The notes beneath the pieces were generated by a model. The model was given only the letters and a program-made list of their open reading frames with translations, did not search any database and had not been told where the DNA came from. From NCBI GenBank assembly GCA_038046605.1, contig JBBSVW010000043.1, forward strand, positions 1-53,613: DNA of 53,613 nucleotides, given 5' to 3'. The position numbers and the translations under genes are program-made. The DNA comes from Candidatus Micrarchaeota archaeon (GTDB taxonomy: Archaea > Micrarchaeota > Micrarchaeia > Norongarragalinales > SBBD01). Shown here one piece after another: positions 1 to 6,555 of the stretch (within the stretch, counting starts at the first letter, position 1; every line of letters begins with the position of its first letter).

Positions 1-251
1 GCCGCTTAATTGGCGGCTTGCATGAATGGCGTAACGAGTGTCCCACTGTCCCTGCGTCAGACCTGGTGAACCTACTACTCAGTGAACATGCTGAGAACTT
101 CTAGGGGGAAACGAAGACCCCGTGGAGCTTAACCATAGCCTGTTGTTGATTCGCGGTTGGGTGTTCAAAGTGTAAGCAGGAGCCGTTATGTTGCACCTTC
201 TGGGGTGCAGATAGGCGAAATTGTGACACTGCTAATATTTGACTACGAGTC

Positions 252-935
252 TCATCTCGCAAGAGAAACAGCTGCAGGTGGGTGGTTTGACTGGGTGTCC
301 GAGGAGTTCAATATTTTGGCCAATACCTGGTTTTTCGCAATCCCGTAATATTTTGAAGTTGAATTGCAAACTATGCTTTCGTCAAGAAAGCGAATTTTGT
401 CTGCAAAAAGTCGTACGTTGGCTTTACCGCCGATCACGACGCCCTTCAAAGTTATTCGGTTGCGGATCTCGAGGCTTGAGAGTGCTTGTGAGAGTTGCTT
501 TCTAAGCAACGGATGAACGCAAGCTACTTCAACTCGATAATGGCTAGTCCTCTTATCAAGCAAAACGCTGCCATCGCAGGAAAAATAAGCTTGCAAAAAC
601 GGAACTAGTAATTCCGGATTTTCAAGAATTTCCACTGGAATTATTGCTGGAGGAAAAATACCTGTTGGGAAGCGCAGAGTTCGGTAAGTCGGCGAATACT
701 TCATCAGCTCAAGTGCGACTTTTTTCGAGAAAAATCGGATTGAGAGAGCATTGGAGCACTTGTTATAGGATGGATTATTCAAGCCAAAGCATTCTTGCAT
801 CAAATCTTTAAATTTTTCAAGCAAGGCATCAACCTTGTTTGTAAGCTGGATGCAATAAGTCTGCTTGCTTTTATCGAAATAAATAGAGCCGTCTGAGAGT
901 AAAAAACCAATAAGCATTGCCAAATTTTTGTCCAT
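252..935 (-). CDS. Double-motif LAGLIDADG homing endonuclease (227 aa), antisense to the rRNA intron
   Basis: Motifs LAMLIGFLLSDGS and LVPFLQAYFSCDGS with typical spacing. ATG 935 chosen because the longer track start (1052) lies in the exon and a TATA-like box precedes 935. Confidence 0.88.
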   Translation of the reverse strand: MDKNLAMLIGFLLSDGSIYFDKSKQTYCIQLTNKVDALLEKFKDLMQECFGLNNPSYNKCSNALSIRFFSKKVALELMKYSPTYRTLRFPTGIFPPAIIPVEILENPELLVPFLQAYFSCDGSVLLDKRTSHYRVEVACVHPLLRKQLSQALSSLEIRNRITLKGVVIGGKANVRLFADKIRFLDESIVCNSTSKYYGIAKNQVLAKILNSSDTQSNHPPAAVSLAR

Positions 936-1026
936 AATAAAATCATTTCGTAGAGCATATAAGGGCTTTGCAAGGGGTGATTTCGGGTGACAAATTTTAT
1001 TTTTTATGAACTCCTCAGACCAGTAA
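296..1026 (+). other. 23S rRNA intron 1 (archaeal BHB type, 731 nt), between G2252 and G2253 equivalents (P-loop)
   Basis: Canonical BHB: central helix ACTG(290-293)/CAGT(1021-1024), bulges GG|T and AA|G, intron stem GAGGAGTTCA(301-310)/TGAACTCCTC(1007-1016). Cutting after the second nucleotide of each bulge regenerates TTGACTGGGGCGGTAC. Confidence 0.92.
955..970 (-). promoter_or_regulatory. Putative BRE/TATA promoter for the antisense endonuclease
   Basis: Minus strand reads CAAAGCCC-TTATAT-GC, with TTATAT at -27 to -22 from ATG 935, as in leaderless archaeal promoters. Confidence 0.5.
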
Positions 1027-1227
1027 GCGGTACACCTTCGATAAGGAAACAAAGGTGCCCAAAGGTCAGCTCAGGAGCGTCAGAACCGCTCTGTAGAGGG
1101 TTAAACACAAATGCTGGCCTGACTGTGACTTTAAAAAAATGGGTCGCAGACACGAAAGTGGGGGTTAACGAACAACAATGGCCTTTTAATGAGGCCTTGT
1201 TCTGTCAGACAAGCTACCCCGGGGGTA

Positions 1228-1334
1228 ATTTCGTTCAATAAATATTTTTTCTAGAATTTTTTTGGCATTCACTAATTGTAATTATAGTTAGCGGATGCCT
1301 TTACGAATTCACCAATTATTGGACGGAACCTCAA
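1228..1334 (+). other. 23S rRNA intron 2 (BHB, 107 nt, no ORF), between A2450 and A2451 equivalents
   Basis: Central helix GGGG(1222-1225)/CCTC(1329-1332), bulges TA|A and AA|A, 13-bp intron stem TTTCGTTCAATAA/TTATTGGACGGAA, internal hairpin GGCATTC...GGATGCC. Splicing gives CCCCGGGGGTAACAGGCT. Confidence 0.88.
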
Positions 1335-1361
1335 ACAGGCTCGTCGCGTGCTAGAGTTCAT

Positions 1362-1558
1362 ATCTCCATTTTTTGATGACATGAGGAAAATGAAGGATTG
1401 GATTTTTAGCGCTTCGTTCGAGCAATTAGTTTTCGTTTCGGATTGCACTGGCATTGCTAGTGCATGGAGTTCTTTCTTAGTCTAGAGATGTCAGCGCAAG
1501 CTGAAGCCTGATTAATTGTTCGTACGATCGCTGGGGATTGCTTTCCGTGAGGGAAATA
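1362..1558 (+). other. 23S rRNA insertion 3 (197 nt, probable relaxed-BHB intron) in the helix 89 loop, ~U2477/A2478
   Basis: Removal restores GAGTTCATATCGACC. BHB-like fold: GTTC/GAAA helix with one G.A mismatch, bulges AT|A and TA|A, TCTC/GAGG stem. Boundary can slide up to 3 nt because ATC is repeated. Confidence 0.75.
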
Positions 1559-1967
1559 ATCGACCACGCGGTTTGGTACATCGCTATCGGCTCAGGTCAT
1601 CCTGGCGGTGCAGGAGCCGCCAAGGGTTGGGTTGTTCATCCATTAAAGACCTACGTTAGTTGGGTTCAGAACGTCGCGAGACAGTTCGGTGGCATCTCCT
1701 AGAAGTGCATTGCGGTTTGAGGGTAAGGTTCTCTGAGTACGAGAGGAACGGGGAACCGGCGCCGCTGGTATTGCAGCTGTCTTCCAAGGCAAGCTGCGTA
1801 GCTACGCGCTAACGGATAAGTCCTGAAGGCATCTAAGGACGAAGCCGTGCCTAAAACGAAACCGCATAGGCCGCTTAAAGCAGATAAGTTCGATAGGACG
1901 GGGATGTAAGAGGAAAGCGCAAGCGATCCTTGAGTCAACCGTTACTAAAGGCCGTAATCACACATTC

Positions 1968-4761: not shown

Positions 4762-6555
4762 TTAAGCAGGCCTAATCAGATATATTGAGGTGCCGCCTGA
4801 AGAGTAAATTTTTTCTAGGTTTCTGCGCAGGTTATCCGAAATTTTCCCCTCAAGACCTCCCGCACTAAAAATGTGGGTAATTCCGTTTGTTTTTGCCAAA
4901 TCAAGGTCGCCGCCTAGAATGGAGGATTGGATTTGCGCATATTTCGCCTCATCAAATCCGTGAGTTGCAACAAAGTAGGGAATTGAGAGGAATGCGCGCC
5001 TTCCAGCAATTGCATAGATGCAAGCGCTATTTTCAGCTGCCGGATCTGCAATGAAGGTCGAGTTTTTTGGCGTATTTTGGGAAGCCCATTCACATGCGGA
5101 TACAACCGATTTGCCCCCAAGGCTAACTGGAGCGTGCACTGATCCGGGGCTTAGGTAAATGAAAAACTGATTGTAGGATGATATCAAGCCAATTGCAATA
5201 ATTGCAATTGCCAAAAGCCTCAAAGCGGCTCCTTTTTGCACAAAAGATGCCAATGCACCAGCAGCGTAGATGCATGCAATTGCAAGGAATGGGAGGAATA
5301 GCTTGGATGCTTCCAGCTCATATGGGGCAATCCGGAAGAAATTCCCAAATATGAAAAGCGCAAGTGCGCCAAGGGATAGGATCGCAAAATCCCGGCTTAT
5401 CTTCCGTAGAATTATCACCCCAATTGCTGCAAGGGCAATGTGGACACCGGCATTTTGGAGCCAAAAAAGAAGAAGGTCGTTGGGCGCATTTCCCCCATAC
5501 AATTCGAATCTGAAATATTGCATAATTCCGGCTGTTTTTTGCGAAAGCATGATTAGGAATTGAGGGATTGAAATGATTGCAGCAAGCACAAGTGGCCTTG
5601 GATCATACTTTCGGGCAATTGTCAGAAAACCAAACATCACAAAAAATGCCGCAAAGAAGAATGCGTTAAACATGGGAAGAATGCCAAGTAAAACTGCCGC
5701 CTCATAAAGGCGGTTTTTCCTGCTAGATGAAAGCAGCCTAATAAAGACCACAAGGAACAGGAGGGCAAAGGCGGTTGTGAATTGTATGAACGCCAAGGTG
5801 ATTGGGGTGGGACCAAATGGGAAGCCTTTGGAAGCCATCCCTAAAGCAGCACTGCCAATCTGTGGGGAAAAAACTGAAAGGAAGGCGCTGCCGCCCATCT
5901 GGCAACCTGTGCATGGAGATGCAAAAAACAAAAGCGCTACGGATATGAAAGCAAAAAGCCTGCTCCCCAGGATTTCCCTTGCAAGCACATAAAAACCCGC
6001 TAGGAAGGAAACGATGAGGAGGGTTTGCACTAATTGGTATGCAAATATCGTGCTTAAACCTCCAGTAACCAGGCTTGATGCGAAAAGATGGAGGAAATAA
6101 TAATAGGACAGCAGCTCTGAAGAAAGGTTTGGATATGCAGGAGGGAAATTTCCTTGCGAAATGGATGAGATAATTCCCAGATGAAATGCGGTATCCCAGC
6201 TTGCGGATGCTAGGCCGTCTGATTGGTCGATTGCAAGCATGGAGGAGTAGCCGATGAGGAGGAATGAAACCAAAAAAACGGCAAACGAATCCCTGCTAAA
6301 TATTTTTAAATGGGAAAACGCGAATCCTTTGGCTTTCCTTGAAATCGCATAGACTAAAACCACAAGCAAGATGGATGCAGCAAGGACTAAATTGGAATTG
6401 AACCCTAAAACTAGGGAAGCAATGAAAACCAGCCATGAAAATGCTAGGGTTCCGATAAGAAGTGAGGGCGCAAAAAGCTCAACATCAAAAAGCTTTTTTG
6501 CAATCTCGTAGCCAAAAAGAAAGGATGAAGCCAATGCGATTAATGCCAATAACAT
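4762..6555 (-). CDS. Polytopic membrane protein, probable GT-C-fold glycosyltransferase
   Basis: Many TM segments; WD..FH...I.SI..GNFPP.YP...L.YYY first-loop motif; C-terminal W...NTP..S.F domain; next to a GT2 gene. Confidence 0.7.
   Translation of the reverse strand: MLLALIALASSFLFGYEIAKKLFDVELFAPSLLIGTLAFSWLVFIASLVLGFNSNLVLAASILLVVLVYAISRKAKGFAFSHLKIFSRDSFAVFLVSFLLIGYSSMLAIDQSDGLASASWDTAFHLGIISSISQGNFPPAYPNLSSELLSYYYFLHLFASSLVTGGLSTIFAYQLVQTLLIVSFLAGFYVLAREILGSRLFAFISVALLFFASPCTGCQMGGSAFLSVFSPQIGSAALGMASKGFPFGPTPITLAFIQFTTAFALLFLVVFIRLLSSSRKNRLYEAAVLLGILPMFNAFFFAAFFVMFGFLTIARKYDPRPLVLAAIISIPQFLIMLSQKTAGIMQYFRFELYGGNAPNDLLLFWLQNAGVHIALAAIGVIILRKISRDFAILSLGALALFIFGNFFRIAPYELEASKLFLPFLAIACIYAAGALASFVQKGAALRLLAIAIIAIGLISSYNQFFIYLSPGSVHAPVSLGGKSVVSACEWASQNTPKNSTFIADPAAENSACIYAIAGRRAFLSIPYFVATHGFDEAKYAQIQSSILGGDLDLAKTNGITHIFSAGGLEGKISDNLRRNLEKIYSSGGTSIYLIRPA

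Follow-up and report, generated by a model that had tools for sequence, protein, structure and literature searches.

The closest described counterparts of the introns analysed here are the BHB introns of crenarchaeal 23S rRNA genes, among them the I-DmoI intron of Desulfurococcus mobilis. The present locus, from a small groundwater archaeon of the Micrarchaeota (DPANN), has in common with them the BHB at the junctions and the insertion into the conserved 23S core, and cutting by the splicing endonuclease EndA followed by ligation would be the route of removal here too. As in the I-DmoI intron, a LAGLIDADG gene of the I-DmoI-like type is found at the corresponding site, although it is carried by the intron of relatives and not by that of the host. 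Nevertheless, the two settings differ, since the host is a mesophilic DPANN archaeon, its intron is 107 nt long and ORF-less and, in the sampled genomes, this intron always stands together with a second one located 22-27 nt downstream. A further counterpart is found in the pre-tRNAs of ARMAN-2 and Micrarchaeota, which contain several BHB introns spaced by a few nucleotides, at non-canonical positions, and in which relaxed BHBs are tolerated. The host encodes the same type of EndA, but here 23S rRNA is the predicted substrate and it is the catalytic adenine that is carried by a short exon.

Introns of a different class are known from almost the same place in the large subunit: the yeast mitochondrial omega intron, with its endonuclease I-SceI, is a group I intron at site L2449. 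Introns at this site resemble the one found in the relatives of our host in being mobile and endonuclease-bearing and share with it the GAUAACAGG stretch of the peptidyl-transferase loop as their location, but they are inserted one base upstream (U2449|A2450) and are ribozymes, not BHB introns. Group I introns at L2449 are described for Physarum LSU rDNA in the part of the source used here (PMC3511172). Several BHB introns within one rRNA gene, as in the present case, and with conserved cores at fixed sites, are reported for the 16S rRNA genes of Thermoproteales (PMC4496867), and the sections of that paper considered here do not describe very short exons or always-paired introns. For Micrarchaeota LSU genes, the consulted sections of a further study place BHB introns beside group I introns, the latter at L2593 (PMC6125680, Table 1), and, in CPR bacteria, insertions cluster round the peptidyl-transferase centre, according to the consulted part of PMC11270868. 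In the literature covered, neither an archaeal intron at A2450|A2451 nor an archaeal rRNA micro-exon was found. The inserts described below are of a known kind, namely classic archaeal BHB introns; what is new is the strict co-occurrence of the A2450|A2451 and helix-89-loop introns across the sampled Micrarchaeota.

The window (the whole stretch of DNA analysed, 53,613 nucleotides long) begins inside a 23S rRNA gene. Positions 1-1967 are the 3' part of the archaeal gene (Rfam RF02540, 654.9 bits, model positions 2048-2987), and the alignment leaves 733 bases unaligned after about position 295, which form one insert, as well as a 336-base block after about position 1234, standing in place of 29 model positions. 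In the 5' direction the gene continues on contig C1, which ends in 32 nt identical to window positions 1-32; the whole gene measures about 5.1 kb, against about 2.9 kb for the mature rRNA. It is the single LSU gene found in the host genome (1.64 Mb, 90.7% complete), split over the two contigs, and a second one was not found in this assembly. The features of the gene are collected in Table 1. GC content is 0.30 in intron 2 and 0.43 in insertion 3, and 0.50-0.56 in the exons. The break of the assembly at window position 1 corresponds to an estimated E. coli position of about 1940-1950, a region which we take to be an intron hot spot, and could reflect a population polymorphism (e.g. presence and absence of an intron) that splits the assembly graph. 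The 5' part on contig C1 contains three further inserts relative to three relatives; for the largest of them, a canonical BHB was not found within 12 nt of the borders. At window position 1225 (E. coli 2448), the base preceding U2449 is a G, where E. coli and the Rfam archaeal consensus have an A; G is found at this position in 65 of 65 exact junction-motif matches among the 90 loci L007-L096, in which some genomes occur twice.

Table 1. Features of the 23S rRNA gene of the host (window coordinates unless contig C1 is named; nucleotides of the rRNA in E. coli numbering).
Feature	Coordinates	Strand	Basis
23S rRNA exon	1..295	+	RF02540 alignment; 5' part on contig C1
Intron 1, BHB, 731 nt, P-loop between G2252 and G2253	296..1026	+	BHB geometry; relatives with exons adjacent; RNA contigs 295>1027
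Two-motif LAGLIDADG ORF	255..938	-	PF14528, E 2e-14; ORF listed as 252..1052
23S exon ending at A2450	1027..1227	+	RF02540 alignment, E. coli numbering
Intron 2, BHB mini-intron, 107 nt, A2450/A2451 junction	1228..1334	+	Intron-free relatives; BHB geometry; no credible ORF
Micro-exon, 27 nt, A2451 to U2477, 5' strand of helix 89	1335..1361	+	Colinear with 19 intron-free loci
Insertion 3, relaxed BHB intron, 197 nt, no ORF, helix-89 terminal loop, U2477/A2478	1362..1558	+	BHB geometry
23S exon to gene 3' end	1559..1967	+	RF02540 alignment
Insert of about 749 nt	contig C1, 4230-4978		Comparison with three relatives
Insert of about 300 nt, long inverted repeat and small ORF	contig C1, about 5313-5836		Comparison with three relatives
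Insert of 98 nt, fits BHB	contig C1, 5979-6076		Comparison with three relatives

The original prediction had placed the end of intron 2 at 1334, the equivalent of A2451 at 1335 and a 27-nt exon up to 1361, where insertion 3 begins, and these borders are borne out to the base by comparison with relatives. Thirty homologous loci were obtained, including the host's own, of which 28 were compared; L016 and L018 were set aside for a partial downstream match, and were later resolved as having both introns and neither, respectively. Nineteen of the 28 loci read GGGGGTA|ACAGG...GAGTTCAT|ATCGAC without interruption, the flanking exons being separated by exactly 27 nt, and the remaining nine have inserts in the same region. 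As intron-free relatives read through with 27 nt, 1228-1334 and 1362-1558 are inserts and 1335-1361 is a genuine exon. Joining 1227|1335 and 1361|1559 gives a sequence that is uninterrupted in 19/28 loci, and in 53 of the 92 loci of a larger set, and the exact 27-mer of the host is also uninterrupted in L018 (G027).

In E. coli terms, A1227 is A2450, A1335 is A2451, U1361 is U2477 and A1559 is A2478, so that the junctions are A2450|A2451 and U2477|A2478, in addition to G2252|G2253 for the insert at 296-1026. The numbering was derived from the annotated E. coli rrl (2906 nt) by subtracting 2, an offset anchored on AAAGA, which we take to be the standard E. coli positions 2058-2062. Because of the repeated A and ATC at the junctions, sequence alone leaves a register ambiguity of 1-3 nt; among the allowed registers, the BHB geometry fits only shift 0, which is the register originally proposed. 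Additionally, those relatives in which the intron ends ...AU|ACAGG show that the archaeal intron is not in the L2449 register.

Class membership was assessed with the hBHBh' motif, i.e. a 4-bp helix flanked on either side by a bulge of 3 nt, each bulge containing a splice site. Every allowed register was tried, and the motif was found at all three junctions, at the exact registers. In intron 2, all four pairs of the central helix are formed (G1222-G1225 with C1329-C1332), the bulges are UAA (1226-1228) and AAA (1333-1335) and an inner helix of 13 bp (1229-1241/1316-1328) follows, while the outer helix is short (G-C, a C.A mismatch, C-G and C-G). Insertion 3 has three of four central pairs (1357-1359/1553-1555, the outermost being a G1356.A1556 mismatch), bulges at 1360-1362 and 1557-1559 and an inner helix of 4 bp (1363-1366/1549-1552), and its outer helix is the native helix-89 stem (1348-1355/1560-1567). 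Intron 1 has 4/4 central pairs, with three inner and three outer pairs. Motifs of this quality arise by chance at a rate of about 5 in 10,000 (of 400,000 pairs of positions drawn at random from the window, 187 pass the strict and 204 the relaxed rules), and none of these pairs was as good as intron 2. The BHB of insertion 3 is not the local minimum-energy fold, since imposing it on 1205-1585 raises the energy by about 12 kcal/mol; the minimum-energy fold of this region contains the BHB of intron 2, displaced by one pair, but not that of insertion 3. At the 3' end of insertion 3 (1541-1556), a hairpin CUUUCC/GGGAAA is predicted from the alignment that would compete with the BHB pairing to the exon, and G055 and L103 have an equivalent hairpin, the 5' arm of which mimics the GUUC of the exon.

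The geometry is kept among relatives. For the A2450|A2451 intron, the central helix has 4/4 pairs in seven of eight distinct loci examined and 3/4 in L102; it is also 3/4 in G413, G244 and G216, and 4/4 in most relatives. The intron-side letters vary (CCUC, CUCC, CCCU and others) with the pairing kept. The central helix of the helix-89 intron has 3/4 pairs in the host genus and in G007 and 4/4 in seven relatives of other lineages (G013, G017, G023, G031, G089, L102 and L103), and its inner helices differ in sequence between relatives.

The host genome encodes both a splicing endonuclease and an RtcB-type ligase. Its EndA (contig C20, 388 aa, PF01974 and PF02778, two nuclease domains) aligns from end to end with PDB 4FZ2 (E 3.5e-126), an entry named only 'tRNA intron endonuclease' in the search output and which we take to be the three-unit epsilon2 endonuclease of ARMAN-2, of broad specificity. 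The RtcB is encoded on contig C28 (569.7 bits). With BHBs at all three junctions and both enzymes at hand, the sequence supports the earlier proposal that the active site would be assembled in three endonuclease/ligase steps, each exact to the nucleotide, of which one falls in the P-loop, one on the A2450/A2451 bond and one in the loop of helix 89. In the mechanism that we propose, each intron-exon pair of the pre-rRNA would fold into a BHB, the three-unit (4FZ2-like) EndA would cut in both 3-nt bulges and RtcB would join the exons, restoring ...GGGGGUA-ACAGG... and ...GAGUUCAU-AUCGAC.... The 27-nt exon, which needs ligation on both sides, would then begin with the catalytic A2451. We consider it very probable that 1228-1334 and 1362-1558 are archaeal BHB introns, with 296-1026 as a third, cut by EndA and joined by RtcB, in the single 23S gene. 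The inserts with their exact borders, the conserved BHB geometry and the two enzymes are there to be seen in the host, and we infer that the cutting and joining take place in this organism as well.

The gene is split over two contigs with a 32-nt overlap, i.e. the assembly graph branches within it, and this could raise the suspicion of an assembly chimera or of a dead, unused rRNA copy. This possibility is negligible in our estimate: in an independent assembly of the DNA run X1 (Logan), one 1549-nt contig spans 101-1649 unbroken and crosses all three inserts, which disposes of the concern, raised with the original prediction, that they might be chimeric; the two-intron layout recurs in 13 other sampled genomes (eight families, including that of the host) and in two GenBank records; and there is the failure to find any other LSU gene. 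The X1 contig has eight differences from the window, all in intron 2, and the same run also holds an intron-free relative, with a 1228>1559 joint and 26 other letters between. As to RNA, three metatranscriptome runs (X7, X12 and X20) contain 16-22% of the sampled words of the window. Depth is zero within all three introns in 3/3 runs, the joints 295>1027 and 1361>1559 are each present in contigs of all three runs, and the joint 1226>1334 (equal to 1227|1335, as two letters fit either side) is present in X12 only, all of them possibly from intron-free relatives; a joint expected of a circular intron was seen in none of the three runs. Since the exact 27-mer also occurs in the intron-free L018, these contigs are not assignable to the intron-bearing organism, and they are consistent with splicing without being proof of it. 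The inserts might alternatively be excised without rejoining, or retained, leaving a mature 23S rRNA that is fragmented or expanded at helix 89 and A2450/A2451. The helix-89 insert does lie in a terminal loop, where bacterial intervening sequences leave without ligation, and the RNA contigs at hand are not assignable to the host organism. However, the BHB geometry is kept at the exact registers in every relative examined, RtcB is encoded, the sites belong to the invariant core of the peptidyl-transferase centre and the metatranscriptome contigs, although of uncertain source, show continuous 1361>1559 and 1226>1334 joints, so that we regard a fragmented or expanded rRNA as very improbable.

Self-splicing by group I or group II introns, instead of splicing by enzymes, would find some precedent in the group I introns at L2593 in Micrarchaeota LSU genes (in the part of PMC6125680 consulted) and in L2449, one base away, as a group I intron site (PMC3511172, again in part). 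We give it next to no credence, as the region 280-1600 gave no Intron_gpI or gpII match, even with E allowed to reach 10, and L001 gave none at the gathering score; moreover, 107 nt are too short for a ribozyme core and the BHB fits exactly. Enzymatic removal of BHB introns being the preferred reading, it can be asked whether cutting of one intron has to wait until the other has been excised and its exons ligated, as the original prediction thought probable on the grounds that the 27-mer would be set free if both of its flanks were cut together. The modelling does not bear this out. The intron-2 BHB uses micro-exon nucleotides 1336-1339 and the insertion-3 BHB 1348-1359, with none in common, and both nest in one predicted fold. 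According to the pairing read from the sequence, the native helix-89 stem, with 11 of 13 positions paired and a predicted duplex energy of -13.8 kcal/mol, would keep the 27-mer annealed to the exon downstream, and therefore a doubly cut intermediate would not simply lose the 27-mer. Archaeal split and multi-intron tRNAs are spliced without covalent continuity. On the other side, forming both BHBs together costs more than forming either alone (-116.6 kcal/mol, against -129.2 and -121.8 when forced singly and -133.7 unconstrained), and the short outer helix of the intron-2 BHB leaves the 5' junction little hold. Taking both sides, an obligatory order appears unlikely: in these models a fixed order is possible and is not required by the structure.

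Intron 2 itself holds no intact homing-endonuclease gene. Among ORFs of at least 30 aa, only one overlaps 1228-1334, namely a frame of 60 aa on the minus strand (1272..1454), which crosses the micro-exon into insertion 3 and is not credible as a gene. Relatives have long versions of the A2450|A2451 intron (643-685 nt), and the four examined (L010, L021, L031 and L032) carry a sense-strand I-DmoI-like LAGLIDADG ORF, intact in L010 (185 aa), L021 (196 aa) and L032 (188 aa) and shortened to 142 aa in L031; a profile of the three full-length ORFs matches I-DmoI chains (E 2.5e-10). Mini versions of 45-107 nt occur in the host and in G005, G055, G145, G244, G020 and G045. The A2450|A2451 intron is a member of a homing-endonuclease intron family, of which the host has a mini version lacking an ORF. 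The suggestion that intron 2 is an ORF-less remnant fares well as regards the missing ORF and the long endonuclease-bearing introns at the homologous site, and less well as regards sequence, since the 107-nt intron and the 670-nt intron of G006, from the same genus, match in their first 7 nt and in nothing else above chance; an origin by deletion is therefore putative. Three states are found within this one genus: an endonuclease-bearing intron (G006), ORF-less mini-introns (host and G005) and an empty site (G003). In a search of genome contigs with patterns from the Micrarchaeota endonucleases, all records obtained were from Micrarchaeota (6 of 38 candidate stretches), including one same-genus contig 100% identical to the endonuclease query. 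In intron 1, the LAGLIDADG gene runs against the rRNA: it begins within the intron and ends in the upstream exon, which it covers in antisense with its final ~14 codons, a layout that is kept at this site in L032 (G031, of another family).

The distribution of the helix-89-loop intron was followed in 92 loci (90 from DNA-based sampling, plus L102 and L103, which were found through the endonuclease). Fifty-three have no intron at either site, 24 a single helix-89-loop insert and ten both introns, the anchor being missing in five; the helix-89-loop intron is therefore present in 24 of the 77 loci without the first intron, examples being G003, of the host genus, and G180, of the genus of G089. 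By crude register scoring, the 24 single inserts lie at 2472 (11), 2477 (10) and 2478-2479 (3). The same scoring put L009, L013, L032, L046 and L070 at other registers, and all of these except L046 fit 2477 better. Five nucleotides upstream of the host's site, after G2472, there is a second family of helix-89-loop introns, with long inner helices and a C.C mismatch as the outermost of the central pairs; the crude scoring assigns 11 loci to it (L038, L043, L047-L050, L053, L055, L058, L059 and L087). Within the host genus, the helix-89 intron is 76-92% identical, with flanking exons 98-100% identical. It is clearly similar to that of G055, of family f11 (z 12.5), and to that of L103 (z 7.3), with which it has conserved internal blocks in common, and not clearly similar to that of G007, of its own family (z 3.0). 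Its alignment contains conserved hairpins with weak covariation (a -0.97 kcal/mol term), from which no function is claimed. A C/D-box reading was discarded, as the UGAUGA and CUGA words of the host are not kept in G003, G006 and G055.

A pattern for an interrupted GGGGGTA junction, run on 401 sampled Micrarchaeota genomes (a count that includes G087 and G234, neither of which matched and from which no locus was taken), was found in 15 genomes. Fourteen of these, from eight families, resolve as having the A2450|A2451 intron; the match in G212 does not, and has no micro-exon within 1502 nt. In all 14 resolved genomes, a second insert starts 22-27 nt downstream of the first intron (in G045 the contig ends within it). 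The ORF-less helix-89-loop intron family thus always accompanies the A2450|A2451 intron in the resolved genomes, a 14/14 co-occurrence to which no P value is attached because related genomes are not independent. L102 and L103, from outside the 401 sample, also have both introns, having been selected for the first. In family f11, three genomes have both introns and none has one alone, and the eight other resolved loci (L011, L012, L014, L017, L020, L023, L024 and L026) have neither. In G145, a 45-nt first intron is combined, across a 22-nt micro-exon, with a second intron of the 2472 type, typical of its own family. In L016 (G055), the exon breaks again after ...CCATTAAA, downstream of the helix-89 intron, and there is therefore a further insert in domain V of this genome.

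We tentatively suggest, as one possibility among others, that the two introns form one genetic unit, through either obligate co-conversion or dependence of the first intron on an interrupted helix 89. With 22-27 nt of exon between them, homing by the I-DmoI-like endonuclease of the first intron would have to copy the ORF-less second intron along; alternatively, the first intron might be spliced or tolerated only where helix 89 is already interrupted. As the cause of the strict pairing, physical linkage appears the likeliest: gene conversion started by the endonuclease would copy both introns, and conversion from an intron-free allele would remove both. The pairing in G145, on the other hand, is a better fit to dependence or pre-existence than to joint import. 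Co-conversion of flanking markers and 'collaborative homing' are known from the F-CphI case, and the likeness lies in that an ORF-less intron beside the cut site of a homing endonuclease could be carried along. The site of an I-DmoI-like enzyme presumably spans about 22 bp, and the helix-89 intron would fall outside it. In contrast to the F-CphI case, both partners are here BHB introns of a single rRNA gene, separated by 27 nt, and the likeness concerns a pattern of co-occurrence, with no transfer observed.

These findings indicate that encoding in pieces is tolerated even at the catalytic centre of the ribosome: the only 23S rRNA of this organism would need three exact rounds of RNA cutting and joining in order to work, and two of these lie 27 nt from each other. 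The layout offers a compact natural substrate for studying how adjacent BHBs and very short rRNA exons are dealt with by EndA and RtcB, and the host genus provides a small model of the cycle of gain, decay and loss of homing introns. Finally, the strict pairing suggests a testable route for the movement of ORF-less archaeal introns and, if co-conversion holds true, ORF-less BHB introns would gain a way to spread.
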